A stretch of DNA of 63,820 nt, the filler included. It is 6 parts of 6 records of this genome, joined end to end, with 100 filler letters (N's around TTAATTAATTAA, not from the genome) between each part and the next. Parts side by side here need not be neighbours in the genome. Positions count along the whole stretch, not along the records: positions 1 to 15,900 come from SRR31156797_4497; 5 more parts are not named here. One strand, given 5' to 3'. The notes under the pieces are model-generated. The model saw nothing but the letters and a program-made list of their open reading frames with translations. It ran no database searches and was not told the origin of the DNA. Each line of letters begins with the position of its first letter. Positions within the stretch are counted from its first letter, which is position 1. The position numbers and the translations under genes are program-made. This document shows, in pieces, positions 1 through 59,040 of this stretch.

Positions 1-36
1 ATCCGCCACGACCTCATACCACTGTACGTTCTATGC
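1..36 (+). repeat. attC-like site 0 (right half only, cut by contig start)
   Basis: ATAC-N8-GTT (16-30); GTTCTATGC (28-36) is the exact reverse complement of GCATAGAAC (1329-1337) at the end of the first gene. Confidence 0.7.
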
Positions 37-59
37 AATTTTAAAAAAACATCATACCT

Positions 60-1334
60 ATGAAATTAAAACCTACATTAATAGTGTTAGCATGCATTAT
101 CGCAATACAGACCTATGGACAATCTGAACTTATAAGTGAATTAAATAAGAATATAACCAAAATAGAAAGCGTTACACCTGACGGTAATTTTAACGACCTC
201 AACTCTTTACAAAGTGTTTTTCAAGACAAAGAAATTATAGGACTTGGAGAAGCAACTCATGGAACACATGAATTCTTCACATATAAACATCGAATGGTAA
301 AATACTTAGTAAAGAATGAAAACTTTAAGGTATTTATTATTGAAGGTGACTTTGCAGGTTCTCAAGCTATGAATGAATACGTGGTTCATGGAAAAGGAAC
401 GCTAATGGATGGCCTTAAGGGTATTGGGTATGGAGTTTGGTTTAGAAAAGAGTTTGTGGACTTTGTTGAATGGATTAAAGAATATAACCAAGATAAACCC
501 ATAGAGGACAAAGTTAAATTTTATGGCTGTGATATTAATAATGAAGTTTCAGTAGCGCAACGCCTAAAATCGTTTTTAGGAGAAAATAATAGATTGAATA
601 ATTCATTAAATGAAGGATTAGAAATAATAATACAGCGTCAACTACGAAAAAAACTTTCGGAGGAAAATTCTACTTATGCAGAAGAAGTTATTTCAGAACT
701 CAGCGATGCTTTTACTAGTATTAAAGAATGCCGTAAAAAAATACTTATGCAACAATGCAAAAGAGAATTGGAACAAATATTTGAAATAATACAGGCAGAT
801 GACAAAACAAGCATTGTACTGCGAGATAAATTTATGGCAGAAAATATAGAATGGGTATATAACCATGAAAACATGCAGAAAACTGTTTTTTGGGCACATA
901 ACGAACATATTAAGAACGATAAAGCCAAATCGTATCAGAAACCAACAGGCTACTATCTAAAAGAAAGATTTGGAGATAATTATTATTCGTTTGGATTTGG
1001 ATTTTACGACGGTGAAGTTGCCGGTTACAACTGGAAAGAAAAGAAATATGATAGTTTTAAAGTTCCAGCAATGTCATCAAAGAAGTTAACAGACGCAGTC
1101 TTTAGCGAATGCATTTACCCCAATTTTATTTTAGATTTAAGAACTACTAATTCGAATGATATAATAAGTAAGTTTTTTAATGCCAATTTATATCAACGCA
1201 CGATAGGTGCAGGTTTTCACCCAGACGGAAAAAAGCAAAATCATTTTCGGATGGGAAAATTGATTGATAAATATGATGGTTTAATATTCTTTAGAGAAAC
1301 AAATCCATCCAGAGTTATAGAAAAAACAGCATAG
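60..1334 (+). CDS. Erythromycin esterase family protein with signal peptide (cassette 1)
   Basis: IIGLGEATHGTHEF, RDKFMAEN, WAHNEH and YDGLIF motifs of the Ere family; hydrophobic N-terminus. Confidence 0.85.
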   Translation: MKLKPTLIVLACIIAIQTYGQSELISELNKNITKIESVTPDGNFNDLNSLQSVFQDKEIIGLGEATHGTHEFFTYKHRMVKYLVKNENFKVFIIEGDFAGSQAMNEYVVHGKGTLMDGLKGIGYGVWFRKEFVDFVEWIKEYNQDKPIEDKVKFYGCDINNEVSVAQRLKSFLGENNRLNNSLNEGLEIIIQRQLRKKLSEENSTYAEEVISELSDAFTSIKECRKKILMQQCKRELEQIFEIIQADDKTSIVLRDKFMAENIEWVYNHENMQKTVFWAHNEHIKNDKAKSYQKPTGYYLKERFGDNYYSFGFGFYDGEVAGYNWKEKKYDSFKVPAMSSKKLTDAVFSECIYPNFILDLRTTNSNDIISKFFNANLYQRTIGAGFHPDGKKQNHFRMGKLIDKYDGLIFFRETNPSRVIEKTA

Positions 1335-1408
1335 AACAAACCGTAATAATGCATAGCTTGCCGCAGGCGCAACACAAGCCACGCATCATACGGCAGGCCG
1401 TTGTAAGC
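1329..1408 (+). repeat. attC-like site 1
   Basis: GCATAGAAC-N5-GT...; imperfect stem ccgtaataatgcatagcttg / caagccacgcatcatacgg; ATAC-N8-GTTGTAAGC; overlaps the stop codon of the upstream gene. Confidence 0.8.
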
Positions 1409-1566
1409 AAGTGTAAGAAACCGACACGACACATTGAAACTTGATTGAAATATTTTCAAAAAACGGATTGACTGGATTGGTGCTCCGTTGATAGGGCGGT
1501 GCAGTTTGAGGGAAATTTATTTTGTTTTTTCTCCCCCCGCACAAAGAAAAAAGAAACCCCGCCCAC

Positions 1567-1631
1567 AAAACAGCACATTTGCAAACCCCACTAGCCAACC
1601 CACAATCCAAAGTTTGCAAAAGAGCTGTTTT
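1567..1631 (+). repeat. GCACATT...AAAGAGC palindromic element, copy A
   Basis: aaaacaGCACATTtgcaaac ... gtttgcaAAAGAGCtgtttt; same motif at 10997, 11395 and 14904. Confidence 0.8.
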
Positions 1632-1647
1632 TTCCAACACTACATAG

Positions 1648-1679
1648 TCAACTGGTTTAGATATAAAATCAACTGGTTT
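1648..1679 (+). promoter_or_regulatory. Direct repeat TCAACTGGTTT x2 at 21-bp period; putative AraC-type operator
   Basis: Copies at 1648 and 1669, upstream of the AraC-domain regulator. Confidence 0.5.
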
Positions 1680-1716
1680 TTCATTAATTTGGGCTTTTTT
1701 ATTTTTATGCACATGT

Positions 1717-4608
1717 ATGATTAGGACTAAACTTCAAATATTACTTATATGCTGTCTTTTTTCAAGCATTTCTTCTAACGCTCAATCGTTAGTAAATACT
1801 GAATACAAAAACACAAAGCAACTACCAGTTGCACAAGTATTTCGAACTTTTCAGGATTCTGAGGGTTTTTTGTGGTATGGAACTCAGGGAGGTGGATTGT
1901 GTAGGGATGATGGTTATTCTGTCAAAATTTTCCGTTCAGATTGTAATACACCTGATTTATTAGAAAGCAATTGGATTACTTGTATTTCAGAAGATTTACA
2001 TCATAAAATCTGGTTTGGCACAAAACGAGGTTTATATGTTTTAGATAAAACAACCTATGAAATTCATCAAATAAAAGACCCTGACATTCAAAACTGGAGT
2101 ATTGATGCTTTATGGGCATCTACAGAAGGTAATATATGGGTATCAACAGCAGATTTAGTCATTAAATATGATTTATTTGAGAAAAAACTAGACACCTACC
2201 ATTCATTGTGGAAAGGTGAATCAAAAAGTGTTTCTCAAATTTATGAAGACCGTGATAAGAATATATGGACTGTTCAATGGAGGGGTGGGATACATAAATA
2301 TAATCCAGCAACAAATGAATTTGTTCCAATTCCATGGGAATTTGAGGAAAGCCCAACGAGTATAATTCAAGATACCGACTTGAAAAAATATTGGATTTCA
2401 ACATGGGGGCAAGGTATAGTAGAGTTTAATCCCAATAATACAGGAGAGCCATGTTTTACGTTACACAATTCCACAAAGGGAAATCGGGATGATTCAAAAA
2501 GATATATTTTAAATTTAACAACAGACACTGTTTTAAATTACATTTGGGCAGCTACTGTAGATAACATTTATGCTTACAGCAAGAGTCAAGACCGCCAATT
2601 AACCAATATCAATATTGACAAGTACTTACCCTCTGGTAAGTTATTAGTGAACCAAATAATAACTGACAAACAAGGGAATTTAAAAATATCAACCGATTAT
2701 CCTCATTCTTTCACTCTATCGTTTAGACAAAAAAACTTTCTAGCAGAAAGCATTAACCAAGATGTAAATACTTTTGGCTTACCAATTGCTCCTGTCGTTT
2801 TTTCTAACAACAAAAATAATTATTGGTTTTGGCAAAAACGCCAAGGACTCTTTCTTTATAATACGAAAATTGGCAAACTAATATCACTATCTGAATTACC
2901 AGGGCTGAATGGTAGAAAGAAATCCATCCTTATAAAAAAGGCAACGGATGATGATGGCATATACACTGTATTAGATGATACAGTTGTCGTAAAACTTCAT
3001 CCATCAGGAGCAGGTAACGTAACATTGGAAAATGTTATCGAAATTCCTTCTTCAGAACGGATTCATAGCCTCAGTCAAGACCAAAAACATAACTTATTGA
3101 TTGGAACTCAAAACACCCTGTTTTATTACAACTTTGCCATCGGAAAATTAACAAAGAGTTCTATAAACGTTGGTGTTATTAATGACATAACAACAAGCAA
3201 TGGATTAGTATTCTTAGCAACAGAACAATCAGGATTGTGCATGATTGATACAACTGGTAGCATTCATGAAATTGTTATGGACAAAAATTTTTCGTCAATT
3301 GCAAATGCTTCTAATCGGTTTATATGGTCTGGAACCGAGCAAGGCGAAGTTTTTATCTATGATATTTTAAATAATAAAACATCACAGATAAAGGAACTTT
3401 TAGGCTTAAACGGTGATGCAATCATTGATTTAGAAGTTGACAGCTCAGGTTTAATATGGATTTTAACCAACCAAAAAGTTATTATTTACAATCCTGAACA
3501 AAAAACAACAAATTCCTATTACAGTTCTGAACCTGATATTTCAATGAATAATTTTTATTCATTAGGCAAAGATGCAAAAGGTCAGATTATTATTGGTGGC
3601 ATGGATGGTTTTCGTCGTTTTGTATCACATAGTAGTTTGAAAAATGAATCAAAAACACAACACGTAAAGCTTACTTCATATTCAATTAATGGAAATCATA
3701 AACTAGTTGGAATTGAAAATAGCATATTAGAATTACAACCGAATGAACGAAATTTAGTACTAAATTTTTCCACATTTGACCATCTTCATACCGGTAAAAT
3801 ACGTTTCGCTTACCGTTTTAAAAATCAACACAGTAATTGGCAATACTTGCCTGATGGCATTAATAGCTTGTCATTAACCGGACTCTCGAAAGGATTGTAT
3901 CAGATAGAGGTCCACGCTACTAATGCAACTGGTCAGTGGAGTAATCAAATATCTTTGTTCTCTTTAAAGGTTTTACCATACTGGTACGAATCAATTATTG
4001 CTTTTATTATTTATTTGCTACTGCTAATTGCATTCATCGTATTATCAATCCATATCTACTTAAACCGTAAAAAGCAAAAGTTAGCTAATGAACAAATCCG
4101 TAATAGTGCTTTAGATTTAAGAGATTGGTTGTATCAATTATCTGGTGAAATGGTTTCGTCTGAATCTTCAGAACCTAATTTAAAGTCTTTGCTTTTAGAT
4201 ATCAAAAAACAGCTTCAGAATCAAAAAACAGAGAATAAGGGTGATGAGCAACAAGGCTTCATTTCTAATATTTCAGCCTCCGATGAAAAATTCATCCAAA
4301 AAGCACTTCATTTTGTTGAGTCGAATATCGATTCTACTAACTACTCGGTAGAACAGTTAAGCAAAGATTTAGGAATGGACAGGACAGGCTTATACCGGAA
4401 ACTTATCAGTATTATGGGTAAATCTCCTACAGACCTTATTAAATCCACTCGATTAAATCGAGCGAAAAAACTATTGAAAGGAGGTTATACAGTATCAGAA
4501 ACAGCCGACTTGGTAGGATTTGGCACTGCCAGCTATTTTAGCAAATGCTTTAAAGATGAATTTGGGGTAAAACCTTCGAGATATACTGACAACCAAAATA
4601 ATACATAA
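1717..4608 (+). CDS. Membrane-anchored sensor/AraC regulator (HTCS-like beta-propeller, Y_Y_Y domain, TM helix, AraC HTH; no kinase or receiver domain apparent)
   Basis: QDSEGFLWYGT/DGY propeller repeats, Y_Y_Y-like segment (IRFAYRF...GLYQIEV), TM helix after LPYWYES, C-terminal YSVEQLS...GFGTASYFSKCFKDEFGVKPS. Confidence 0.85.
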   Translation: MIRTKLQILLICCLFSSISSNAQSLVNTEYKNTKQLPVAQVFRTFQDSEGFLWYGTQGGGLCRDDGYSVKIFRSDCNTPDLLESNWITCISEDLHHKIWFGTKRGLYVLDKTTYEIHQIKDPDIQNWSIDALWASTEGNIWVSTADLVIKYDLFEKKLDTYHSLWKGESKSVSQIYEDRDKNIWTVQWRGGIHKYNPATNEFVPIPWEFEESPTSIIQDTDLKKYWISTWGQGIVEFNPNNTGEPCFTLHNSTKGNRDDSKRYILNLTTDTVLNYIWAATVDNIYAYSKSQDRQLTNINIDKYLPSGKLLVNQIITDKQGNLKISTDYPHSFTLSFRQKNFLAESINQDVNTFGLPIAPVVFSNNKNNYWFWQKRQGLFLYNTKIGKLISLSELPGLNGRKKSILIKKATDDDGIYTVLDDTVVVKLHPSGAGNVTLENVIEIPSSERIHSLSQDQKHNLLIGTQNTLFYYNFAIGKLTKSSINVGVINDITTSNGLVFLATEQSGLCMIDTTGSIHEIVMDKNFSSIANASNRFIWSGTEQGEVFIYDILNNKTSQIKELLGLNGDAIIDLEVDSSGLIWILTNQKVIIYNPEQKTTNSYYSSEPDISMNNFYSLGKDAKGQIIIGGMDGFRRFVSHSSLKNESKTQHVKLTSYSINGNHKLVGIENSILELQPNERNLVLNFSTFDHLHTGKIRFAYRFKNQHSNWQYLPDGINSLSLTGLSKGLYQIEVHATNATGQWSNQISLFSLKVLPYWYESIIAFIIYLLLLIAFIVLSIHIYLNRKKQKLANEQIRNSALDLRDWLYQLSGEMVSSESSEPNLKSLLLDIKKQLQNQKTENKGDEQQGFISNISASDEKFIQKALHFVESNIDSTNYSVEQLSKDLGMDRTGLYRKLISIMGKSPTDLIKSTRLNRAKKLLKGGYTVSETADLVGFGTASYFSKCFKDEFGVKPSRYTDNQNNT

Positions 4609-4627
4609 AGCATATAACAAATCAAAA

Positions 4628-4662
4628 TCAACCATTTTACAGTTTTTTTCAACCATTTTACA
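4628..4662 (+). promoter_or_regulatory. Direct repeat TCAACCATTTTACA x2 at 21-bp period; putative regulator binding site for the GH43 genes
   Basis: Exact 14-mer at 4628 and 4649 in the intergenic region before the GH43 cluster. Confidence 0.6.
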
Positions 4663-4738
4663 CGACTAGTGAGTCTACATTATATTGTTTTGTGTTTTGT
4701 AATCGATATTATTAACAATATAAAACTTGGAAAAAGCA

Positions 4739-5812
4739 ATGCAAAAAAGAGTTTATTTTTTAATGATGACCGCAATAGTTTTATTCTTTCAATGGAGCTG
4801 TTCGCATAAATCATCTAAGAAAGAGCTATCCGAAAATGAGATGAAAGCCTACTTGCTAGTTTACTTTAAGGATAGCGACCATGCTTTACATATGGCACTC
4901 AGTTCTGATGGGTATTCGTTTACCGATATAAATAATGGCAATCCGGTTATATCCGGAGATACTATTTCTATGCAAAAAGGTATTCGTGACCCACATATTA
5001 TGCGAGGTCCCGATAACCTATTTTACATGACAATGACCGACCTGCATATTTATGCCCAACGGGAAGGATTGCGAAATACAGAGTGGGAGCGCCCCAGAAA
5101 CGAGTTTGGTTGGGGTAATAACAGGGGATTTGTTCTAATGAAGTCTGCCGATTTAATTAATTGGTCGCACACCACAGTTGCAATCGATGAAACCTTTGCT
5201 GGTTATGATTCTATCGGCTGTGCCTGGGCACCTCAAACAATTTGGGATGATAAAGAAGGGAAACCTATGTTATATTATAGTATGCGCTTTTATGACGGAA
5301 CAATTCGTTTGTTTTTTAGCTATACAAATATTGAGTTTTCTAAATTGGAGACAGAACCCAAACTTCTTTTCCAATATCCGAAAGACCTAACTTATATAGA
5401 CGGAGATATTACCAAGGCAAACGATAAATTTCATCTATTCTATGTTGCCCATGATGGCACACCGGGCATTAAACAGGCTGTTTCTTCATCCATTAACGAG
5501 GGGTATTCATATGACTCTGTTTGGTATGATTCAGAAGCAGTAAAATGCGAAGCACCTAATATTTGGAAACGTATTGGTGAAGATAAATGGGTACTAATGT
5601 ACGATATCTATGGATTAAAGCCTGCCAATTTTGGATTCAGAGAAACCTCCGATTTTAAAACATTCACCGATTTAGGACGCTTCAACGAAGGTGTTATGAA
5701 AGCAACCAATTTTCAAATACCCAAACATGGCGCCGTAATTCAGCTTACTAAAAAAGAAGCTGAGAAGTTAGCCAAATACTGGCAATTAGAAATGACGTTT
5801 GATAAACTTTAA
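4739..5812 (+). CDS. Glycoside hydrolase family 43 lipoprotein
   Basis: GIRDPHI, CAWAPQ, YIDGDI and CEAPN five-bladed-propeller motifs; lipobox-like QWSC; ATG at 4739 preferred to TTG at 4727. Confidence 0.8.
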   Translation: MQKRVYFLMMTAIVLFFQWSCSHKSSKKELSENEMKAYLLVYFKDSDHALHMALSSDGYSFTDINNGNPVISGDTISMQKGIRDPHIMRGPDNLFYMTMTDLHIYAQREGLRNTEWERPRNEFGWGNNRGFVLMKSADLINWSHTTVAIDETFAGYDSIGCAWAPQTIWDDKEGKPMLYYSMRFYDGTIRLFFSYTNIEFSKLETEPKLLFQYPKDLTYIDGDITKANDKFHLFYVAHDGTPGIKQAVSSSINEGYSYDSVWYDSEAVKCEAPNIWKRIGEDKWVLMYDIYGLKPANFGFRETSDFKTFTDLGRFNEGVMKATNFQIPKHGAVIQLTKKEAEKLAKYWQLEMTFDKL

Positions 5813-5913
5813 AAGATTGGAATTATGAAACGAGCCATGAGCATACCTTTTCTTACAAAGGATAATGACGACTGGCAAGTTCCATCTGACCATTGAAAAT
5901 AAATTATAAACAG

Positions 5914-8337
5914 ATGAAAAACACATTAATCATACTATTATTAGTTTTTAAGACAGGACTTATACTTGCACAAAACTATCCTCAGGTAATCCTTCGTGGC
6001 GATTACCCCGACCCGACTATTATCCGTGATGGAAGCGACTATTATATGACGCACTCAAGTTTTGTTTACAATCCGGGATTCCTGATTTGGCATTCAACGG
6101 ACTTAATTAACTGGGAACCAATAGCCAGAACTATGACAAAAATTAAAGGTTCGGCATATGCTCCCGATTTGGTAAAATACAATGGAAAGTATTACATCTA
6201 TTATCCATCTGCCGGTACAAATTGGGTTATCTGGGCAGATGATATCAGAGGCCCTTGGAGTAATCCCATTGATTTAAAAGTTGAAAGAATTGACCCCGGA
6301 CATGTTGTCGATAAAAAAGGGAACCGATTTTTACATTTAAGCAAAGGTCTTGTTGTACCATTAACAAAAGACGGACTAGCTACCAAAGGTGAAGCAACAA
6401 AAACGTACGATGGATGGGAATACCCAAAAGAATGGGTAACTGAGTGTTTTTGCCTTGAATCACCTAAATTAAATTATAAAGATGGTTATTATTACCTCAC
6501 CAGTGCCCAGGGTGGAACGGCTGGCCCGGCAACCAGTCATATGGTGGTGTCAGCTCGCTCTAAAACACCTGTTGGTCCTTGGGAAAATTCACCTTACAAC
6601 CCAATTGTGCATACATGGTCGCCATCTGAAAAATGGTGGTCAAAAGGTCATGGTACTCTTATTGATGACATAAATGGTGATTGGTGGATTGTTTATCATG
6701 CATACGAAAACGGGGCTTATACCTTAGGACGCCAAACATTGATAGACCCCATTAAATGGACAAGTGACGGATGGTATAAATTGGACGAAAACCGGGAACC
6801 CCTGCCCTCCCAAAATCCTCAAATAGGCATGCAACTTTCTGACTCTTTCTCAACAAATAAACTTGGCATTCAATGGACAACGTGGGGTGGTTATAAAGGC
6901 GATGATATTACATTTTCCAATGGCAGCCTGTTTTTAAAAGGAAAAGGTGATACCCCGGGATATGGTCGTAAACTGCTTATTACTGTACCTGACAAAAATT
7001 ACCAAATAGAAAGTGAAATTACCCTAAACGAGGGTGGTTCAGGAGGCTTAATTTTATTTTATCGTGAAAATGCTTTTGCCAGTATTACCTCTGATGGGGA
7101 GTCTTTTACAATAAACGATAGGGATAAAGAAGTTGATAACATTGATTCTGAATTTGGCGACCATTTTTTTCTAAGAATCATTAATCAGGCAGATTTGTGT
7201 ACTATACAGGCAAGCAAAGATGGTAAAATATGGCTTACGTTAAAGAATTATCTTGATGTTTCAGGTCTGCACCATAATAATTACAGAGGGTTTTATGCCT
7301 TAAGAGCTGGTTTAGTAGCTACACACAATGCAAAAGTAGAATTCAAATATTTTAATTATACTGCTGGTAAATTAGCTCCAAAGCCTGTATTTCGTGACCC
7401 GGTTTACGATGGTGCTGCCGACCCGGTTGTAATTTGGAATCCATTGGTTAGCAAGTGGTGGATGTTTTACACCAATCGTAGAGCTACTGAAACTGAATTG
7501 CCAGGTTATAGTTGGGTATTTAAAACACCTATCGGAATTGCAGAATCTGACGACGGTGCCAATTGGGATTACGTAGGAATTGCGAATTTTCCAAATCTCC
7601 CTCCGGAAGCAGGAGGCGACAGTGCAACTTTATGGGCACCGGATGTTATTTACGGTGAAGATGGTAATTGGCACATGTTTTTAAGTATTCAAGCAGGTAT
7701 TGCTGAACACTGGGGCAAAGTTCCCGGTTATATCGACCACTTAACCAGCTATAACCTTCGGGATTGGCAATATAAAGAACGCTTCAATCTTCCGGTTGGC
7801 AGCTACGATGCCGATGTAATTAAGATGCCTGACGGTAAATGGCGTATGTATTACAAAGACCCATCAAACCATGCTTCAACCTTCTATTATCTTGAAAGCA
7901 CCGATTTAAATAACTGGTCAGCCCCAACAAAAGTAATGTCAACAAAAGGTGAAGGCCCTGCCGTTTTTTATTGGAAAGACTATTATTGGATGATACTTTG
8001 TGATGGAATGGGCTTTAAAACATTTCGTTCTAAAGATGCAAACGAATGGGAATTGCAACCCGGAGGCCCTTTAATGCCGGAAGGTTCAGGAACAGGATCC
8101 GACGATGTGGCAACGGCACGCCATGGTGATGTTGTAATCAGCAATGGCAGAGCCTATTTTTATTATTTCACCCATCCCGGCCAGGTTGGAGAAGACACAA
8201 AGAAAGACGGTTTCGAACAACGTCGTTCTTCAATTCAGGTGGTTGAGCTAAAGTTGAAAGATGGATGGATTGTTGCAAATAGAGATAAACCGACGTTCGT
8301 AGATTTGGAAATGCCTAAAATTAATCGTTTAAAATAA
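5914..8337 (+). CDS. Two-domain GH43 (xylosidase/arabinofuranosidase-like) fused to a second GH43-like propeller
   Basis: YPDPTIIR, YAPDL, IDPGH and LESP in the N-terminal module; beta-sandwich; second module with AADPVV, LWAPDV, YDADV and GEGP; ATG at 5914. Confidence 0.85.
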   Translation: MKNTLIILLLVFKTGLILAQNYPQVILRGDYPDPTIIRDGSDYYMTHSSFVYNPGFLIWHSTDLINWEPIARTMTKIKGSAYAPDLVKYNGKYYIYYPSAGTNWVIWADDIRGPWSNPIDLKVERIDPGHVVDKKGNRFLHLSKGLVVPLTKDGLATKGEATKTYDGWEYPKEWVTECFCLESPKLNYKDGYYYLTSAQGGTAGPATSHMVVSARSKTPVGPWENSPYNPIVHTWSPSEKWWSKGHGTLIDDINGDWWIVYHAYENGAYTLGRQTLIDPIKWTSDGWYKLDENREPLPSQNPQIGMQLSDSFSTNKLGIQWTTWGGYKGDDITFSNGSLFLKGKGDTPGYGRKLLITVPDKNYQIESEITLNEGGSGGLILFYRENAFASITSDGESFTINDRDKEVDNIDSEFGDHFFLRIINQADLCTIQASKDGKIWLTLKNYLDVSGLHHNNYRGFYALRAGLVATHNAKVEFKYFNYTAGKLAPKPVFRDPVYDGAADPVVIWNPLVSKWWMFYTNRRATETELPGYSWVFKTPIGIAESDDGANWDYVGIANFPNLPPEAGGDSATLWAPDVIYGEDGNWHMFLSIQAGIAEHWGKVPGYIDHLTSYNLRDWQYKERFNLPVGSYDADVIKMPDGKWRMYYKDPSNHASTFYYLESTDLNNWSAPTKVMSTKGEGPAVFYWKDYYWMILCDGMGFKTFRSKDANEWELQPGGPLMPEGSGTGSDDVATARHGDVVISNGRAYFYYFTHPGQVGEDTKKDGFEQRRSSIQVVELKLKDGWIVANRDKPTFVDLEMPKINRLK

Positions 8338-8346
8338 AAAATTATT

Positions 8347-9723
8347 ATGAAGGTATTAGACCTTAAAAAAATTACTTTATTTGGACTATTTCTGTTGGCT
8401 TATCTGGGAGTTATAGCTCAAAACCCAATAATACAATCTAAATACACGGCTGATCCGGCACCAATGGTCTATAACGACACCGTATTTCTTTTTGTAGGTT
8501 GTGATGAAAAAGATGCTCCTGCAAACAGATATCTTATGCGAGAGTATCATTTGTATACAACCACAGATATGGTTAACTGGACAGACCATGGCGCACCATT
8601 AAAGACAAGCGATTTTTCATGGTCGCTAGGTGATGCCAGTGCCGGACAATGTATCGAACGAAATGGAAAATTCTACTTTTACATGTCTACCATGAATAAA
8701 AACATTCGGGGAGTTTCTATTGGAGTGGCTGTGGCAGATAGTCCTTATGGACCATATAAAGATGCTCTGGGGAAAGCCCTGATAACAAACGATATGACCA
8801 AAGCTGCCCACCACTCATATGATGATCTTGATCCAACGGTTTTTATCGATGATGATGGACAGGCGTATCTGTATTGGGGAAATGGCGTTTGTTATTGGGT
8901 GAAACTAAATGACGACATGGTTTCAATTAATGGTGATATTACGGCTTATGATAAAAATGACCAAGCCATATTTGGAAAAGGATTTACGGAGGCTCCGTGG
9001 GTATACAAACATAACAAACTGTATTACATGATTTATGCTTCCGGCTTTCCGGAATCTATTCATTATTCAACAAGTAAATACATAACTGGACCGTGGAAAT
9101 ATAAAGGCGTTATTATGCCATTGGAAAAGGGCAGCAACACCAATCATCCGGGAATTATCAACTATAAAGGAAATGCTTATTTCTTCTATCACAACGACGA
9201 CCTGCCCGGCGGACATAGCTATTGCCGCTCGGTATGTGTTGAACAATTTAAATACAACAACGATGGAACGATTCCTGAGCTGACCATGACAAGCGGAACT
9301 CGAAAAGCAGTTGCAACTTTAGATCCATATAAAAGAAATGAAGCAGAAACCATAGCTCGGAGTGCAGGTATTACTGTAGAAGGTGATAAAAAGTATGGAT
9401 GTTTTGTTTCCTCTATTCATGATAGTGATTATATAATGGTTCGGAATGTTGATTTTGGCGTAAGAGGGGGCGAAAAATTTATTGCGACTACTTCAAGTAG
9501 ATATCATGGAGGTACAATAGAGATTAGAACAGATTCTATTGATGGAGCATTGCTTGGCATCTTAAAGACACGCTACACCGGAGAATGGGGAAATTGGGCT
9601 ACACTTTCCGTTGATGTGAAACCTGCTGTCGGAATCCATGATTTATATTTTATATTTCGAGGGGGTAAACCTTATGAACTTTTTTATTTCGACTACTGGA
9701 AGTTTAATGAATCATCAAAATAA
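8347..9723 (+). CDS. GH43 glycosidase with C-terminal CBM6
   Basis: TADPAP, DLDPTVFIDDDGQAYLYWG, FTEAPW and TNHPGI motifs; C-terminal NEAET...VDFG...GIHDLYFIF...FDYWKF. Confidence 0.85.
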   Translation: MKVLDLKKITLFGLFLLAYLGVIAQNPIIQSKYTADPAPMVYNDTVFLFVGCDEKDAPANRYLMREYHLYTTTDMVNWTDHGAPLKTSDFSWSLGDASAGQCIERNGKFYFYMSTMNKNIRGVSIGVAVADSPYGPYKDALGKALITNDMTKAAHHSYDDLDPTVFIDDDGQAYLYWGNGVCYWVKLNDDMVSINGDITAYDKNDQAIFGKGFTEAPWVYKHNKLYYMIYASGFPESIHYSTSKYITGPWKYKGVIMPLEKGSNTNHPGIINYKGNAYFFYHNDDLPGGHSYCRSVCVEQFKYNNDGTIPELTMTSGTRKAVATLDPYKRNEAETIARSAGITVEGDKKYGCFVSSIHDSDYIMVRNVDFGVRGGEKFIATTSSRYHGGTIEIRTDSIDGALLGILKTRYTGEWGNWATLSVDVKPAVGIHDLYFIFRGGKPYELFYFDYWKFNESSK

Positions 9724-9744
9724 CTTCTATAGAATGAATGTTTT

Positions 9745-9905
9745 TATTACTTTACCCTTCCCGGCCAGGTTGGAGAAAATAGAAAAAAGATGGATTTGAC
9801 CAGCGTCGCTCATCCATACAAGTTGTTGAATTAAAATTACAAGACGGATGGATAATAGCAGATAGGGATAAATCAAGTTTTATCCAGATGTCAAAACTTT
9901 GGTAG
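9745..9905 (+). pseudogene. Frameshifted remnant of a paralog of the 3' end of the 5914-8337 gene
   Basis: YYFTLPGQVGENRK-(-1)-DGFDQRRSSIQVVELKLQDGWIIADRDK versus YYFTHPGQVGEDTKKDGFEQRRSSIQVVELKLKDGWIVANRDK (8161-8289). Confidence 0.85.
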
Positions 9906-9920
9906 TAGTCTATAGGAAGG

Positions 9921-9990
9921 GTACAATTGTACGGGTCGATATTGAAGAATGCTTTTATCATATTAATCCAACGTACAATTGTACTAGTCG
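9921..9990. promoter_or_regulatory. Two copies of the perfect palindrome GTACAATTGTAC, each followed by nnGTCG, 52 bp apart
   Basis: Copies at 9921-9932 and 9973-9984. Confidence 0.45.
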
Positions 9991-10083
9991 TAACGATAAT
10001 AACTACATCTTTTTTTCGTTATATTTAGAATTCAGTTCTAAAATTATAGGAGAAAGAAAAGCAGTTTCAACCTGCTATGTTAA

Positions 10084-10257
10084 GAAGCAAAAGGAATTTA
10101 ATCGGAAGCAAGGGCAATGAAAGTCGAAGCAGCCCAACTACAAGAGGAAGCAGTAGAACTGTAAGCTGAAGCAATACAATTGCAATGCGAAGCAACGGGA
10201 ATGTAACCCGAAGCAACGCATTTGTAACTGGAAGCAGAGCAGATGTAAGTCGAAGCA
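10084..10257 (+). repeat. Phased array: GAAGCA x9 at an exact 21-bp period
   Basis: Copies at 10084, 10105, 10126, 10147, 10168, 10189, 10210, 10231 and 10252 with variable 15-nt spacers. Confidence 0.85.
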
Positions 10258-10318
10258 ACCAATTTGTAATTATTAATAACCCGTTTGCTGTAATGGCAGA
10301 CCTTAAAAATTAAATTTT

Positions 10319-10975
10319 ATGGCAACTAGACCGAAAAATTCCGAAGCCGATACATTAGAGCTTTATCGAGTAGCGTTAGAAAATGCAGAAACACAGTCAG
10401 AAATTGCAACAGTTATGGCAGAGTTAGGCTACGACTCCGCAAAAATCACCGAAGGTAAAACCCTTTTGACCGAGACACGTTCAGCCTACGATTTCAACAA
10501 GACCGAAGATGACGAAACCTCTGCTGCTTCAGCTTCATTCTCCGATAAAAAAGCAGAATTGGAGAAAGTTTTTAAAATGCAACGTAAAAAAGCAAAAGTC
10601 ATATTCCGTAACGATAGTTTAACCGCCGATAAATTGGCAATTTCAGGAGAAATGCCACGGACTTATATAAAATGGTTAGAAGCTGCAAAGAAATTTTACA
10701 GTGTAGCAATTACCGATACAGCTATTCAGACCAAATTGGCAAGATTAGCAATTACTGCTGACTCATTAACAGCCGCAAACACTTTGATAACTGAACTCGA
10801 AACAGCAAGAGCAGAATACTTAAAAGAAGTTGGAGAATCGCAAGACGCAACAAAAGCTAAAGATGCTGCATTCGCTAAGATGGATGATTGGATGAGCGAG
10901 TTCTACGCAGTTGCACGGATTGGATTAGAGGATAATCCACAGCTATTAGAAGCATTAGGAAAGATAGTTAAATGA
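10319..10975 (+). CDS. Hypothetical all-alpha-helical protein
   Basis: 218-aa ORF rich in Ala/Glu/Lys, with an AT-rich leader before the ATG; no motif recognised. Confidence 0.75.
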   Translation: MATRPKNSEADTLELYRVALENAETQSEIATVMAELGYDSAKITEGKTLLTETRSAYDFNKTEDDETSAASASFSDKKAELEKVFKMQRKKAKVIFRNDSLTADKLAISGEMPRTYIKWLEAAKKFYSVAITDTAIQTKLARLAITADSLTAANTLITELETARAEYLKEVGESQDATKAKDAAFAKMDDWMSEFYAVARIGLEDNPQLLEALGKIVK

Positions 10976-10996
10976 TAAAAGGGAAAGCCCACGCTA

Positions 10997-11062
10997 TTTG
11001 TAAGCACATTGGCAAGTCACACGAGCCACGCTCAGACCAAAACTTGCCAAAGAGCTTACAAA
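10997..11062 (+). repeat. GCACATT...AAAGAGC palindromic element, copy B
   Basis: tttgtaaGCACATTggcaagt ... acttgccAAAGAGCttacaaa. Confidence 0.8.
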
Positions 11063-11221
11063 GCCAGCCCTAAGTACCGCCTTTAAGGGCGGTTTGGGAT
11101 TTCCCGTCGCACAAAAAACAAAATAAATTCGTGCTCCGTATCAAGGTCAGTGCGGATTGATAAGAATAAAGATTAGATTTGTAAAAACTTGAAACAGATT
11201 GACTTCGAACAATGAACACCA

Positions 11222-11357
11222 GCTTACAACACGGTATATACAAAATGGGCGGGATTGTGCTAAAATCAAGGGCAGTAGCCCGCTTTAAAATAGTAACGGT
11301 TTGATAAGTATGTAGCCCGCAATCGCCCACATTTGCATATACCCATCCGTTGTGTTT
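11222..11357 (+). repeat. attC-like site 2
   Basis: GCTTACAAC (complement of 1400-1408); stem ggtatatacaaaatgggcg / cgcccacatttgcatatacc; ends in GTTGTGTTT. Confidence 0.8.
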
Positions 11358-11394
11358 CATGCAAAGAGAGACCGTGCAACTAATGCCAACGCAC

Positions 11395-11456
11395 ATTTGG
11401 CACATTCGCAAGCCCTAACCCACTAGCTGATGCTTCAGCTTGCAAAAGAGCCAAAT
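11395..11456 (+). repeat. GCACATT...AAAGAGC palindromic element, copy C
   Basis: atttgGCACATTcgcaagc ... gcttgcaAAAGAGCcaaat. Confidence 0.8.
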
Positions 11457-11492
11457 TTTAGCCGACGCACAGCCAGACAAAATGAACTGATT

Positions 11493-13529
11493 ATGAATAT
11501 AGAAGAATTAAATAGTGGAATTAAACAAATCGGCAAGACTTCAATAGATATCAAAGGATATTATGATAATCATGAGAAACTTGTTGAAGGCTTGAATAAT
11601 GTACCGACTGCCGAACTTGATAAGTGTCTTGATTATTACGCTTCAAGGTCTGGTGTTATCGTTGACTTACGCAAGGAACTAATTGAAACATTAAAGCGTG
11701 AAGACAAAATTACAACTGATACATTATCGGATTTGTTAAATAAGCATAGAGAAGGAAAAGAGAATCAGTTTCGAGCATATAAAAATTGGTTTTCACTTTT
11801 TTATCCACCGATAACTTTCTACGGACATAATCCGATTAGGAAATTTATAAATGAGTTCATTGAGAAGTTAATCGCTGATTTAAAACTAAATGAACATGTA
11901 AAATCTACTTTGATTGATTTTCAAGGAGCACGACAACAAGGAGCTGACCGATTATGGCTTGCACTTTATAATAATCAGCAAAAATCACAGTCTCATGGTC
12001 TACAATTTTTTGTTGAGTTCTACAATGGCACTATTAAATATGGCGTTTATCGCCATAGCAATCAAAGCTATATAAAGAAACCTGAGAATATTTCATTTGA
12101 AGATTTTGATTACAACAAAATGCTTGGATATTTCAGTCCTGAAACCGATGTAATTAAAAATGATACTCCTAAAAAGCAAGAAAGCAATAGTGAGCCTGTT
12201 CCAGAAAATGGTAACACTAATGGCTCAAAAAGCTTAAATCAAATCTTATATGGCCCTCCAGGTACAGGTAAAACTTATAATACGGTTTTAAAAGCAGCAC
12301 AGATTATTTCACCTGATTCATATATTACAGATTATGATGAAGCCTTAAAGATATTCAATGACAATCTTGGAGGCAGAATTGAGTTTATTACTTTTCATCA
12401 AAGCTATAGTTATGAAGACTTCATCCAAGGTTTAAGACCAGACGTTGAAGCGAAAGGGCAATTAAGTTTTGATAAAAAAGATGGGGTATTTACAAGAATA
12501 GCGACAGAAGCACTCTTTGAATACTACAAAAAATCAAAAAGACTTAAAGCCGAAAAGAAAGAAAGCTCTGAGAAAAAAGATGAAAACGAGGTTTATTTAG
12601 ATTTTATTGAGCATTTAAAGAACCTTGAATCAAAGGTCTTTAAATCAGCAACTGGCTCAGTCATCTCAATTACATCTTTTACAAAAAATGACAATGTTGA
12701 GTTTAAACATGCAAATAGCAGTAGAACATATTTAGTTTCAGGTAATCGCCTTTTAAAGCTATTTGAAGTATTTCCTGATATAAAGAAAATAAAGAACGTT
12801 CATACTGACATACGGGATGCAATTGGTGGTTGTAATACAACAGTATATTGGGTTGCATTGAAGGAATTTATTTCATTTTATAATAAGTATGAAAAATCCT
12901 CAGATGAGGAAAAAGAAGAGGTTTTTGAAGAAGTTAGCTACGAATCCAAAAAGAAACTACTTGCCACATTTGATTTGGAAGTACTACGAAAAATTTCAAC
13001 AGAAGATGTCCCAAATTATGTTATCATAATCGATGAAATCAATAGGGCAAATATTTCTAGAGTGTTTGGCGAGTTAATAACACTTATAGAGCCTGATAAA
13101 CGTTCTCACGGTAGAATACCATTGTCATGTACACTTCCATCAGGCGAACAATTTATTGTTCCTTCAAATTTATATCTGGTTGGAACTATGAATACTGCAG
13201 ATAAATCGATTGCACTATTAGATATTGCATTGCGACGTCGTTTTGAATTTGTTCCAATGTATCCAAATTACAACTTGGATTATGAAGCAAAAGAAGTGTT
13301 GCAATCAATAAATGAAAAAATCATAGAACTTAAAGGTTATGATTTCCAGATTGGACACGCTTACTTTATGACAGAGGACTTTAACTTAGTTGATTGTATT
13401 AACAACAAGGTAATTCCTTTACTACTAGAATATTTTCTGAATGATGAGAATGAGGTTAAAAATGTATTAACTCATGCTGGACTTGAAGTACAAGACAAAA
13501 GCTGGCCATTACAAATTACCAGCAACTAG
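11493..13529 (+). CDS. mcrB: McrB-family AAA+ GTPase (type IV restriction)
   Basis: GPPGTGKT, FHQSYSYEDF, IIDEINRAN and GTMNTADKSIALLDIALRRRF; ATG at 11493 chosen because the longer ORF starts inside the repeat element. Confidence 0.9.
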   Translation: MNIEELNSGIKQIGKTSIDIKGYYDNHEKLVEGLNNVPTAELDKCLDYYASRSGVIVDLRKELIETLKREDKITTDTLSDLLNKHREGKENQFRAYKNWFSLFYPPITFYGHNPIRKFINEFIEKLIADLKLNEHVKSTLIDFQGARQQGADRLWLALYNNQQKSQSHGLQFFVEFYNGTIKYGVYRHSNQSYIKKPENISFEDFDYNKMLGYFSPETDVIKNDTPKKQESNSEPVPENGNTNGSKSLNQILYGPPGTGKTYNTVLKAAQIISPDSYITDYDEALKIFNDNLGGRIEFITFHQSYSYEDFIQGLRPDVEAKGQLSFDKKDGVFTRIATEALFEYYKKSKRLKAEKKESSEKKDENEVYLDFIEHLKNLESKVFKSATGSVISITSFTKNDNVEFKHANSSRTYLVSGNRLLKLFEVFPDIKKIKNVHTDIRDAIGGCNTTVYWVALKEFISFYNKYEKSSDEEKEEVFEEVSYESKKKLLATFDLEVLRKISTEDVPNYVIIIDEINRANISRVFGELITLIEPDKRSHGRIPLSCTLPSGEQFIVPSNLYLVGTMNTADKSIALLDIALRRRFEFVPMYPNYNLDYEAKEVLQSINEKIIELKGYDFQIGHAYFMTEDFNLVDCINNKVIPLLLEYFLNDENEVKNVLTHAGLEVQDKSWPLQITSN

Positions 13530-13534
13530 GATTT

Positions 13535-14902
13535 ATGATAAATCTTTTCGAATATCAGAATAAAGAAACCTTTAAAGGCGATTACTCTGGACTAGAGTAT
13601 TTTCTAGATGATATCTGGAATAAAAGAGAACGCAGTTTCTTTTATGGTAATGGTGATTCTGAAAAAGTTGAAGTTCAGCGATTTGTTCAGTTCATACATA
13701 AATCTAAGGAGATTAAGTCTAATAAGTATGTTGGTGTAATTCATTTTGAAGGCGAAAAAGTAAATCTGCTACCAAAGATATTCTACGACACCAAACGGGA
13801 TTATGATGATAAAGATGTAAATGCAATTCAGCAACATATTTTATGGTATCTGAGCTATTGTAGAAAATTGAAATTCCCAAATTTCAAATCATCTTTAGGT
13901 AGCTTAAAAAATGACTTCTTTGAAATCCTAATCTATTTATTTGCTAAATACACAAGAGAGCTTCTATCGAACTCTATATTCCAGCAATATGAAGAGGTTA
14001 ACAGAGAAGTTCATAATATTAAAGGCCGATTAGATACACCAACTTATATTTCTCAAAATTTATCAAAAGCTCATTGGCATAAAGTTAGTTGCACTTATGA
14101 TTCTTTTGTAATGGACAACAAATTCAACAGAATTGTAAAGTATGTAACTAAGTTGCTTTTCAATGTCAGTACCAACTTTGAAAATAGAAAGTATTTAAGG
14201 GAGATACTATTCATCCTAGACGAGGTTAGTGATGAAAATGCAACAGCAAATGATTGTGCGAGTATAGTTTTTAATCCTATGTACAGTGAGTTTGAGACAA
14301 TTCGTGATTACTGTACTTTGTTTCTGAGTAATAGCATTTCAATTGATTACAAAAACGATTTGAAACTTTTCGCTTTTCTGTTGCCAATGGAGTATTTATT
14401 TGAAGACTTCGTATTTGGCTTCATAAATAAAGAGCTTAAAGAAATAAATGTAAAATCACAAGTTAGCTCAACTCACTTAGACGAAGGAAAGATATTCGGA
14501 TTAAAACCTGATTTATGCATTACCACACCGACAAAAGATTTTATAGCGGATACAAAATATAAAATTGCTTACTCAGAGAATAATGACCCTAAAAATGGTA
14601 TTTCACAAAGCGATTTATATCAAATGGTTGCTTATGCAATTAGATTTGAAATACAGGATATTGCTTTGCTATATCCGAGTATGCTTAAATCAAAAGATAA
14701 TGGAATGTCAACGATACAGATAAAAGATAACTTGGCGTTGGATAAAGAAATAGATATTTCAGCTCATCAGCTACCGATTATAAACTACGATTTATTTTCA
14801 ACGGAATCTGATTTTAGAAATATTGAATTAACAGAGTTGTTTAAAAAACAAAAAGATGAATTAAGAAAAAAATTAGAGGATATATTTGCCACCCCTTCGT
14901 AG
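13535..14902 (+). CDS. mcrC: McrC-family endonuclease subunit
   Basis: YVGVI...LLPK, PMEYLFEDFV, KPD...ADTKYK (PD-D/ExK) and SDLYQMVAYA; directly follows mcrB. Confidence 0.9.
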   Translation: MINLFEYQNKETFKGDYSGLEYFLDDIWNKRERSFFYGNGDSEKVEVQRFVQFIHKSKEIKSNKYVGVIHFEGEKVNLLPKIFYDTKRDYDDKDVNAIQQHILWYLSYCRKLKFPNFKSSLGSLKNDFFEILIYLFAKYTRELLSNSIFQQYEEVNREVHNIKGRLDTPTYISQNLSKAHWHKVSCTYDSFVMDNKFNRIVKYVTKLLFNVSTNFENRKYLREILFILDEVSDENATANDCASIVFNPMYSEFETIRDYCTLFLSNSISIDYKNDLKLFAFLLPMEYLFEDFVFGFINKELKEINVKSQVSSTHLDEGKIFGLKPDLCITTPTKDFIADTKYKIAYSENNDPKNGISQSDLYQMVAYAIRFEIQDIALLYPSMLKSKDNGMSTIQIKDNLALDKEIDISAHQLPIINYDLFSTESDFRNIELTELFKKQKDELRKKLEDIFATPS

Positions 14903-14903
14903 T

Positions 14904-14964
14904 CAAGCACATTGGCTGGTCGCTCAAAAAGCCAACGCACGACCAAAACCAGCCAAAGAGCTTG
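14904..14964 (+). repeat. GCACATT...AAAGAGC palindromic element, copy D
   Basis: caaGCACATTggctggt ... accagccAAAGAGCttg; begins 2 nt after the mcrC stop. Confidence 0.8.
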
Positions 14965-15004
14965 CCAACCCAATCGCACGGGCAGACTGCGAGATAAAGC
15001 ACGA

Positions 15005-15141
15005 AAACACAACAAAGTGTCATACGTAATGCGGGGAAAAGTGGTAGATTTGAATATAAGTACAATTAATAAACGGCATAGTGGTTTGATAGTTTGGAGC
15101 TTCGAAACCCGCACTACGCATACACTAGGCCGTTGTGGTTA
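15005..15141 (+). repeat. attC-like site 3
   Basis: AAACACAAC (complement of 11349-11357)-N5-GT; stem agtgtCatacgtaatgcggg / cccgcactacgcatacact with one extra base; ATAC-N8-GTTGTGGTTA. Confidence 0.8.
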
Positions 15142-15181
15142 ATCAAGAAGGAGAAACAAAGTTCCATTTTATCATCTAGAA

Positions 15182-15213
15182 TTTGATTTTTGTTCCATTA
15201 TTCGTTAACTTTG
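15182..15213 (+). promoter_or_regulatory. Bacteroidota sigma-A type promoter of the toxin-antitoxin cassette
   Basis: TTTG (15182-85)-N20-TAACTTTG (15206-13) matches TTTG/TAnnTTTG; the ATG follows 4 nt later. Confidence 0.65.
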
Positions 15214-15217
15214 TAAC

Positions 15218-15571
15218 ATGGAAACAAAAAGAAAGATTTTCTACTTCAAGAATCATTTTAGAGATTTCTTTGAAGCTCAAACTGAAAAAGTTAAGGACAA
15301 GATTGATTACGTTCTTTTCTTAGTCACTGTTGCAGAAAAGATTCCTAAAAAGTTTTTTGACAGCATGACTGGTTATGACGGACTTTGGGAAATAAGGATT
15401 GAATTCCAAAGTAATATCTATCGAGTTTTCTGCTGTTTTGATGAAGGAAGTTTAGTTGTTTTATTCAATGGATTTCAAAAGAAAAGCCAAAAGACACCAA
15501 AGAAAGAGATTGAAAAAGCAATGCGGATAAAAGATGAATATTTCGAGTTAAAAAAGAAAGGAGAGCTATAA
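15218..15571 (+). CDS. RelE/HigB-like (Gp49-type) toxin
   Basis: GLWEIRI...YRVF...VVLFNGFQKKSQKTPKKEIEKA. Confidence 0.85.
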   Translation: METKRKIFYFKNHFRDFFEAQTEKVKDKIDYVLFLVTVAEKIPKKFFDSMTGYDGLWEIRIEFQSNIYRVFCCFDEGSLVVLFNGFQKKSQKTPKKEIEKAMRIKDEYFELKKKGEL

Positions 15572-15861
15572 TGAAAAATTTAACATCATTTGACGACCAT
15601 TTAGACCAAAGATATGGTAAAATTGGTAGCGAAAAACGGACTGAATTTGAGATTAAAGCCAAAGCTTTTGCAATTGGAGAGATTTTACGTGAAGCAAGAA
15701 AAGATGCACACATGACTCAAGAACAATTAGCAGAAAAAACAGGAACAAGAAAAAGTTTTATATCTCGAATAGAAAACGGCCATAGTGATATTCAATTGTC
15801 AACGCTTTACCGATTAGTAGAATTAGGATTTGGTAAAAGAGTTAACTTGACGATAGGATAA
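15571..15861 (+). CDS. XRE-family HTH antitoxin (HigA-like)
   Basis: LREARKDAHMTQEQLAEKTGTRKSFISRIENG; stop and start overlap with the toxin. Confidence 0.85.
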   Translation: MKNLTSFDDHLDQRYGKIGSEKRTEFEIKAKAFAIGEILREARKDAHMTQEQLAEKTGTRKSFISRIENGHSDIQLSTLYRLVELGFGKRVNLTIG

Positions 15862-15866
15862 AAGAC

Positions 15867-15900
15867 TAACCACAACAATTTGTATAAGCAATAGCGGCAA
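15867..15900 (+). repeat. attC-like site 4 (left part only, cut by contig end)
   Basis: TAACCACAAC is the exact complement of GTTGTGGTTA (15132-15141); followed by N5-GTAT. Confidence 0.75.
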
Positions 15901-16000
15901 NNNNNNNNNNNNNNNNNNNNNNNNNNNNNNNNNNNNNNNNNNNNTTAATTAATTAANNNNNNNNNNNNNNNNNNNNNNNNNNNNNNNNNNNNNNNNNNNN
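15901..16000. other. Artificial contig spacer
   Basis: N-run with TTAATTAATTAA. Confidence 0.99.
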
Positions 16001-16324
16001 CTGTTGCCATGGGGATTTCCCCGGCTTTTTGCAACCCTCTCTTATAGGGAATGGGAATGGGATTGTCAATATTCGGGAAAGTGATTTTCAGGGCCGCTGC
16101 TTCGATTATGGGATCTCATTATTAAACATGTATTATTTTGAGAATTTCACCGATACTCTTTACTGTCAACGACAATACCGGTTTAATAGTCGGATTGTGT
16201 TTCATTATGATACACAACCCGGTTTATTGAATTTCTCCGGTCCGGATCCGGGACCGATTTCTTGTGACACGCCGGGCGGGCATTCCTATCCAAAATCCAT
16301 TAAATTTTCACACCAACCTGGTCA

Positions 16325-16340
16325 CGGCACAGTTTTGGCT
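16325..16340 (+). promoter_or_regulatory. sigma54 (-24/-12) promoter
   Basis: cGGcacagttttgGCt (GG-N10-GC), about 45 nt upstream of the likely start codon. Confidence 0.6.
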
Positions 16341-16382
16341 TTATTCCTGAATCATAATGCCAAATTGGAGAGGGGATTCTTT

Positions 16383-59002: not shown

Positions 59003-59040
59003 GTAATCTATGGCGAACAATTTTCCACCTCACCACTTTA

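Follow-up and report, generated by a model that had tools for sequence, protein, structure and literature searches.

The first 15,900 bases of a 63,820-base stretch of DNA (termed here the window; N/TTAATTAATTAA linkers connect its six apparently unrelated contigs, whose guanine–cytosine (GC) contents range from 0.32 to 0.60) are very probably a fragment of the cassette array of a Bacteroidota integron-like gene-capture system in its Flavobacteriaceae form. The array is confined to this first contig of metagenomic origin (GC content 0.356), which contains three complete and two cut attC-type sites and four cassettes. Cassettes 2 and 3 are long (9.8 and 3.6 kb, respectively) and have, just inside both of their ends, a structured hairpin of a second family, termed h, which an inventory made earlier from the letters of this DNA (the original prediction) had overlooked. 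The array is regarded as integron-like, and not as a classical integron, because the recombinase that heads such arrays in related genomes is Xer/XerA-like and lacks the IntI insertion, because no canonical IntI is found in 5/5 array-bearing genomes, and because the site cores depart from GTTRRRY.

Swapped cores occur in all four cassettes. The core strings are GTTCTATGC at 28 and GCATAGAAC at 1329 for cassette 1, GTTGTAAGC at 1400 and GCTTACAAC at 11222 for cassette 2, GTTGTGTTT at 11349 and AAACACAAC at 15005 for cassette 3, and GTTGTGGTTA at 15132 and TAACCACAAC at 15867 for cassette 4; all eight are present exactly where the original prediction had placed them. Each cassette starts with GTT and 6–7 further bases that are the reverse complement of the bases before AAC at its own far end, which gives the proposed exact reverse complementarity over 9–10 nucleotides (nt) in 4/4 cassettes. 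With GTT and AAC taken as given, the chance of each exact match over the remaining 6–7 bases is at most 1 in 4096. The imperfect palindromes from AAC to the next GTT are 68, 124, and 125 nt long (inclusive) and, as also proposed, each has one extra base on the top strand, within the left arm (3/3). Mismatches that become G-T pairs on the bottom strand had been noted as well. On the bottom strand, a single long stem with one bulged base forms in 3/3 sites, but a clear stability advantage over the top strand exists in only 2/3 (bottom versus top strand: −14.4 versus −9.3, −20.9 versus −21.3, and −15.2 versus −13.6 kcal/mol). Model attC sites have two or three extrahelical bases; the strand-selective fold with an extrahelical base is present here in kind, with one base only. 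All 10 large open reading frames (ORFs) of the contig are co-oriented, as had been stated, and an Rfam scan of 1–15900 at E ≤ 1 yields no match.

The original prediction also held that the contig encodes no integrase. None of its ten large ORFs is a recombinase in a Pfam scan, so that the statement stands for these genes, but the absence reflects an assembly limit because both contig ends fall within attC-type sites. IntegronFinder defines integrase-less attC clusters (CALIN), a definition that reportedly goes back to Cury in 2016; the description (at least two attC sites with no integrase nearby) fits the contig, but both of its ends are cut inside sites.

Related genomes were approached via the genome of one close relative found, Mariniflexile jejuense (Flavobacteriaceae): the cassette 2 regulator is 95% identical to its homologue there, and window positions 1418–8319 are 94% identical to M. 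jejuense C42. A covariance model (R1) was built from the bottom strands of three window sites and three M. jejuense sites and superseded a crude regular-expression site finder, which missed known sites. Elsewhere in the M. jejuense array, two sites are only partly readable because positions 1107–1222 and 3308–3562 of locus L014 (M. jejuense C1) are read as N. Across 291 kb, R1 yields 74 matches with E < 1e-3. Scanning with such a model had been suggested in the original prediction, and it recovers arrays of the same sites in 9/10 related loci, downstream of an orthologous recombinase gene and on its strand; in the tenth, the sequence available downstream is <1 kb. No R1 site occurs within cassette 2. 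Among 151 sampled Bacteroidota genomes, 53 have R1 sites at E ≤ 1e-6. The arrays keep their sites from genome to genome but vary in gene content. L014 has two copies of a cassette that lacks ORFs and is rich in GCGGAA-type repeats (4575–4165 and 2196–1785, minus strand), one of them directly following the recombinase gene.

The related sites share the anatomy of those in the window. Among 128 of them, GTT is in register in 126 and AAC in 102, and length is sharply fixed near 124 nt, with 111/128 sites spanning 120–139 nt. Their cores depart from GTTRRRY as anticipated, with only 8/128 sites fitting, which is the chance rate. End complementarity generalizes beyond the window: 41/63 consecutive site pairs in related arrays match at ≥8 of 9 bases, and several of the failing pairs are one-base register shifts or skipped sites. 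In an alignment of 88 sites, 87.9% of cells pair and double changes occur in 17/24 pairs; the covariation score is 0.375 compared to 0.139 in shuffles (0/500 reach it) and ≤0.075 when the structure is slid. Three positions are G-U in 75–81 of the 88 sites, which marks the bottom strand.

Arrays in related genomes begin beside a tyrosine recombinase, as would be expected if the cognate enzyme lies elsewhere, which had been proposed. In M. jejuense, a gene for a 368-amino-acid tyrosine recombinase (C1:4620–5726) is followed by same-strand cassettes with the same site type and swapped cores. The protein has Phage_integrase and SAM-like domains and aligns unbroken to archaeal XerA/Xer (4a8e, 3.5e-34), whereas its alignment to VchIntIA (2a3v) is in two pieces, with 23 residues opposite 66. 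It falls below the cut-offs of profiles TIGR02249 (179 versus 265 bits) and NF040815 (184 versus 220). An AlphaFold model (mean predicted local distance difference test score 81) has an extra N-terminal alpha/beta domain and a fold that matches XerA best and then IntI4. Full-length orthologues occur in 15/301 sampled Flavobacteriaceae genomes, often at contig ends, and catalytic residues are conserved across 12 aligned array-adjacent recombinases from three clades, of which clade 1 carries an extra N-terminal domain of about 70–90 residues. The recombinase gene is upstream of and co-oriented with the array in 12 loci and divergent in one (L085); besides the arrays at loci with an orthologous gene, three begin beside other Xer-like clades. 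No TIGR02249 match exceeds the cut-off in 5/5 array-bearing genomes, where the top-scoring matches are the Xer-like genes beside the arrays. A search at array ends for a tyrosine recombinase with or without the IntI-specific insertion had been suggested; the enzymes found lack it, so that the proposed "IntI-type" recombination fits the inferred chemistry and not the enzyme family. In L085 (genome G113), the divergent Xer-like recombinase gene occupies 7582–8712.

Cassette shuffling is indicated by other metagenomes. Contigs of four other public runs (assemblies, not reads) were compared with the contig at 1–15900. In run X7, a 2,026-nt contig tracks cassette 3 to 15135 and then continues into unrelated sequence, and a second contig diverges upstream of 11349. 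A 3,731-nt contig of run X3 spans 11429–15133 and ends there, and a short contig diverges upstream of 11350. The run X6 contig follows 10514–11062, then 271 unrelated letters, and then 11347–14014. Joints in run X2 had sides of 21–23 letters, which is too short, and were discarded. These X7, X3, and X6 junctions indicate that the McrBC cassette (cassette 3) has other neighbours elsewhere and that homology breaks at the predicted crossover. Shuffled gene content around the sites, which the original prediction had made a test of its proposal, is therefore found: the cassette is differently flanked in three other studies, with breaks at 11347–11350 and 15133–15135.

A mechanism for the array can be proposed along integron lines. 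The sites would act as folded single strands with the bottom strand preferred, and a lone bulged base together with conserved G-T wobble pairs would identify the strand. Strand exchange by a tyrosine recombinase would take place in the right core, at G|TT, and exchange at this point would explain why each cassette starts with 6–7 bases that complement its own left core. Such swapped-core exchange would let cassettes leave as circles, reinsert, and reshuffle. The acting enzyme is probably a Xer/XerA-like recombinase with an intact catalytic set, of the type that heads arrays in relatives, and would be encoded off this contig.

Several points weigh against this interpretation of the array. The contig has no recombinase, attI, or array start, and one of the three window sites is equally stable on either strand. 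Recombination itself is not directly observed, the alternative junctions come from assemblies, and no cassette circle junction occurs among the compared contigs, which are assemblies and not reads. The link between recombinase and sites is by adjacency only, and the recombinases involved fall into three or more clades, with one case of divergent orientation (L085). Models R1 and R2 (the latter for h) were built from the same family, and pairs were counted in alignments fitted to these models, a bias towards the structures; lone R1 matches in genomes across the phylum may include chance matches. The likely placement in Flavobacteriaceae is drawn from GC content and from a mobile cassette that is 94–95% identical to M. 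jejuense.

The h element is the novel part of the finding. It is a hairpin of about 72 nt with four copies in the window, in which stems vary around a conserved box (GCACATT/AAAGAGC, a C-G pair flanked by two A-A mismatches) and loops have 22–27 nt. The 8-mer GCCAACGC occurs on both sides of each hairpin and again within the loop; the inner copies enclose the cargo. Left-end (h_L) and right-end (h_R) copies are two conserved subtypes that are kept across genomes with unrelated cargo. Double changes occur in 15/18 pairs and the covariation score is 0.623 compared to 0.153 in shuffles; two "pairs" of this count that never pair, with the structure string one column off, are the A-A mismatches (51/51 and 49/51 distinct rows). 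The covariance model of h, R2, finds copies in 63/151 family genomes. Two other views of h were discarded. As a candidate genome-wide repeat, it gave six matches, one of them a real copy, in a pattern search of M. jejuense, compared to two control matches, and swapping of h halves in the manner of attC cores is ruled out because both stems pair within each copy. No description of an h-like element or of Flavobacteriaceae arrays was found in the accessible text of the literature, where a sequence motif is not searchable by words.

Copies of h are associated with attC arrays and long cassettes. All 11 h-centred loci examined contain attC arrays in matching orientation (loci L082–L092 were selected for having h), and 29/36 h copies lie ≤200 nt from an attC-type site, mostly at 16–62 nt, in gene orientation. 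Where the interval between attC-type sites is ≥3 kb (n = 19), h occurs at both ends in 11, compared to 0/103 shorter intervals. Restriction-modification or defence genes are present in 11/12 h-framed cassettes examined, the exception being window cassette 2. L061 and L085 have one chassis at 98–99% identity with different cargo; identity falls inside h_L after the GCACATTT box and returns inside the h_R loop. This cargo swap looks like homologous exchange because the breakpoints are not equivalent between h_L and h_R. In L057 (genome G006), h_R is directly followed, at 10330–11300, by an opposite-strand gene for a group II intron reverse transcriptase/maturase, and by one reading the intron may be inserted in the left core of an attC-type site. 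Classical integrons have attC-targeting group IIC introns, which the L057 intron presumably resembles.

The two long cassettes of the window are built on a conserved "chassis" of h_L and h_R, each bordered by GCCAACGC. A tentative best guess is that long cassettes can be recombined because h provides an accessory or architectural site, and that h also acts, in effect if not by design, as a handle of homology for cargo swaps. A broader proposal is a somewhat more doubtful possibility: that Bacteroidota have their own, independently equipped and widespread version of the integron principle, in which a Xer-like enzyme without the IntI insertion works on strand-specific hairpin sites past the classical size limit, with h and GCCAACGC as a second site class that enables 3–10 kb cassettes and exchange of whole operons within a constant chassis. 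Other observations count against such roles. Among the 19 long intervals, six have no h, one has two copies >200 nt from any detected attC, and one (L057) has one h near an end and a second that is internal. In loci selected by recombinase, h is at both ends in 1/8 long intervals and at one end in one. The cargo swap is seen in only one chassis pair. The bottom strand of h folds better in 36/36 copies, yet this is weak evidence because the stems, with 16 A-C/C-A cells compared to 4 G-T, give little asymmetry themselves; the advantage may be due to loop composition.

It could alternatively be supposed, although this is rather unlikely, that a nested second mobile layer has h_L and h_R as its ends or sites, with cargo exchanged site-specifically at or near GCCAACGC in a fixed chassis. 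In favour of such a layer are the placement of GCCAACGC around and within each hairpin, with cargo between two inner copies, the left and right subtypes that stay conserved despite unrelated cargo, the common chassis and different cargo of L061 and L085, the run X6 homology that stops exactly at the outer edge of h_R, and an M. jejuense module with h_L outside any array. The single chassis pair, however, breaks at non-equivalent points, as in homologous exchange and not at a fixed crossover; a BLAST search of chassis spacers against the related loci analysed found no empty chassis, no candidate enzyme was found, and conservation that ends at a motif may reflect no more than the borders of some functional element. 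An equally improbable role for h is that of a regulatory insulator, i.e., a terminator or RNA-processing hairpin that keeps read-through across the array out of restriction or defence operons, which are self-regulated and potentially toxic. The restriction-modification or defence content of 11/12 h-framed cassettes and the presence of h at both ends in gene orientation suit this role. A terminator scan detects none of the four window copies, with a total of 13 compared to 9.9 ± 3.0 in shuffles; moreover, h loops of 22–27 nt have no regular T tract, the self-regulated toxin-antitoxin cassette (cassette 4) lacks h, and it is the antisense (bottom) strand of h that folds better.

For the array itself, it is very unlikely that the contig is a fragment of a classical integron (a CALIN) with a canonical IntI that carries the I2 insertion encoded elsewhere and with the Xer-like genes as bystanders. 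Site anatomy and swapped cores fit classical attC logic, the contig shows no recombinase whatsoever, and reviews, in their available text, count Bacteroidota among phyla with integrons. Other sources, also as far as their available text goes, differ: Neron 2022 (the IntegronFinder 2.0 preprint) reports for Bacteroidetes only In0 earlier, plus one complete integron in Salinibacter; for the Darracq preprint, Bacteroidota are one of the clades "previously found without any integrons"; and a survey of Elizabethkingia with IntegronFinder reports no integrons. From this literature on Bacteroidota comes a hint, and only a suggestion, that standard attC models miss these sites. A canonical IntI is opposed by the sub-threshold TIGR02249 matches in 5/5 array genomes, of which the best are the array-adjacent Xer-like genes themselves, by arrays directly downstream and on the same strand in 9/10 loci with a Xer-like gene, by three more arrays beside other Xer-like clades, and by a GTTRRRY fit at chance (8/128). 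The additional domain around patch III is the defining feature of IntI in the available text of the Ghaly archaeal-integron preprint, and the IntI insertion is described there and in the Darracq preprint as essential for hairpin-site recombination.

Comparison of the preferred integron-like array with known systems reveals both shared and divergent features. With sedentary chromosomal integrons and CALIN it shares co-oriented cassettes, AAC/GTT imperfect palindromes, an inferred G|TT crossover, a bottom-strand fold with a bulge, and toxin-antitoxin and restriction cargo, and with classical integrons a putative group II intron in a site of a related array (L057). Unlike classical integrons, the recombinase lacks the IntI-specific insertion and is usually upstream and co-oriented, not divergent with attI and Pc placed between gene and array; cores are off GTTRRRY (8/128), sites have one bulged base and lengths near 124 nt (111/128), and 3–10 kb cassettes are common, where the available text of the Darracq preprint holds classical cassettes to be size-limited. 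Spirochaetota "reverse-orientation" integrons likewise have a recombinase oriented with the array, but their enzymes are IntI with the additional domain according to the available text of the Ghaly preprint, whereas the enzymes here lack it. Xer/dif and archaeal XerA (PDB 4a8e, 5hxy) provide the best sequence and fold matches and are two-domain "simple" tyrosine recombinases; Xer, however, acts on one double-stranded dif site per chromosome, whereas the gene here heads arrays of dozens of hairpin sites and clade 1 enzymes carry the additional 70–90 or so N-terminal residues.

The closest published system is the rAID-1 (recombinase-associated acquired interbacterial defence) clusters of gut Bacteroidales, which the array resembles in kind, by description. 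In the available text of Ross et al. (10.1101/471110), rAID-1 clusters have a gene for a XerD-like tyrosine recombinase at the 5′ end and at least two co-directional low-GC genes downstream of it, with intergenic repeats called reminiscent of integrons; they are recognized by a recombinase with ≥44% identity to that of B. fragilis NCTC 9343 and carry orphan genes for immunity to interbacterial toxins. Both systems have a tyrosine recombinase at the 5′ end (here in relatives), the same phylum, low GC content, and repeated intergenic sites, and the contig has the co-directional genes and low GC content (0.356) of the description. The cargo here consists instead of an esterase, a regulator with glycoside hydrolases, McrBC, and HigBA, and the available account of rAID-1 includes no G|TT swapped cores, strand-specific folding, or h-type element.

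Almost nothing favours the view that the palindromes are inert intergenic repeats (like repetitive extragenic palindromes or miniature inverted-repeat transposable elements, or terminators) with core complementarity unrelated to recombination: they are intergenic and hairpin-forming and recombination has not been seen directly, but this view is largely refuted because the complementarity ties a cassette start to its own far end and not to the same hairpin (4/4 here, 41/63 in relatives), the same cassette has different neighbours in three studies with breaks at 11347–11350 and 15133–15135, and gene content changes between genomes while sites persist.

Features of the contig are listed in Table 1. 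The stop codon of the cassette 1 esterase gene (60–1334) falls within the left core.

Table 1. Sites, h elements, and cargo genes on the first contig of the window (GH, glycoside hydrolase; HTH, helix-turn-helix)
Feature	Position	Strand	Evidence and remarks
attC-type site, 3′ part, cut by contig end	1–36	+	Right core GTTCTATGC at 28–36, complementary to 1329–1337
Cassette 1 cargo, erythromycin-esterase family protein, 424 amino acids	60–1334	+	PF05139, E 1.6e-56
attC-type site, short form, 68 nt AAC to GTT	1329–1408	+	R1 51.3 bits, E 6.8e-12
h_L (left-end h element) of cassette 2	1563–1635	+	Fold z −5.3; R2 86.8 bits
Cassette 2 cargo, regulator and three glycoside hydrolases	1717–9723	+	Pfam; 1418–8319 94% identical to M. 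jejuense C42
Cassette 2, hybrid two-component/AraC regulator	1717–4608	+	Pfam
Cassette 2, GH32/43-like protein	4727–5812	+	Pfam
Cassette 2, GH43	5893–8337	+	Pfam
Cassette 2, GH43-CBM6	8347–9723	+	Pfam
Cassette 2, orphan ORF, 218 amino acids	10319–10975	+	No Pfam or PADLOC match
h_R (right-end h element) of cassette 2	10994–11065	+	Fold z −6.3; R2 84.4 bits; run X6 homology stops right after
attC-type site	11222–11357	+	R1 117.7 bits
h_L of cassette 3	11390–11461	+	Fold, model R2; overlaps mechanical start of McrB-like ORF
Cassette 3 cargo, McrB-like AAA+ GTPase	11430–13529	+	PF07728
Cassette 3 cargo, McrC	13535–14902	+	PF10117, E 8.8e-70
h_R of cassette 3	14897–14971	+	Fold, model R2
attC-type site	15005–15141	+	R1 110.6 bits; run X3/X7 contigs end or diverge at 15133–15135
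Cassette 4 cargo, HigB/Gp49-like toxin	15218–15571	+	PF05973
Cassette 4 cargo, HTH antitoxin	15571–15861	+	PF01381
attC-type site, 5′ part, cut by contig end	15867–15900	+	Left core TAACCACAAC

Cassette 2 has further features of its own. The GH43-CBM6 gene is absent from the M. jejuense module, and after this gene lies a remnant of a GH43 gene 3′ end (9738–9886; 8157–8204 resembles 9741–9788), which suggests insertion or duplication within the cargo. A 21-nt tandem repeat (10160–10269; 5.2 copies, 66% matches) lies just 5′ of the 218-amino-acid ORF. An imperfect inverted repeat of about 55 nt occurs near the cassette ends (1476–1530, 11113–11160), outside h_L and h_R, with an exact 17-nt core (1514–1530 / 11113–11129); its left copy is also present in M. 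jejuense. The regulator-GH43 module of M. jejuense C42 (locus L015, about 10270–18915) lies with its h_L outside any attC array, and model R1 finds no attC-type site around it. A tRNA gene and a 13-nt copy of the 3′ end of this tRNA flank the module, and a decayed insertion sequence splits its h_R; the module may once have been a cassette, or a cassette may derive from it. Elsewhere in the window, positions 15901–63820 comprise five further contigs (GC content 0.32–0.60) that are apparently unrelated to the first, where weak R1 matches (59035–59086 and 61381–61492; E 0.15–0.16) were taken as chance.

Bacteroidota are nearly integron-free in the available integron literature, in the text accessible for it, and yet attC-type sites occur here in 53/151 sampled genomes. 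If the link between enzyme and sites is true, single-strand hairpin recombination would be possible without the IntI domain, and surveys based on IntI would overlook a large mobile-gene reservoir, to which an erythromycin-esterase homologue and numerous systems for restriction and defence belong. If the novel reading of h is also true, restriction and defence operons, and here a glycan-utilization module, would be exchangeable as wholes within a constant chassis. Long cassettes and their h chassis bear on the cassette size limit and on the origin and turnover of multi-gene cassettes.

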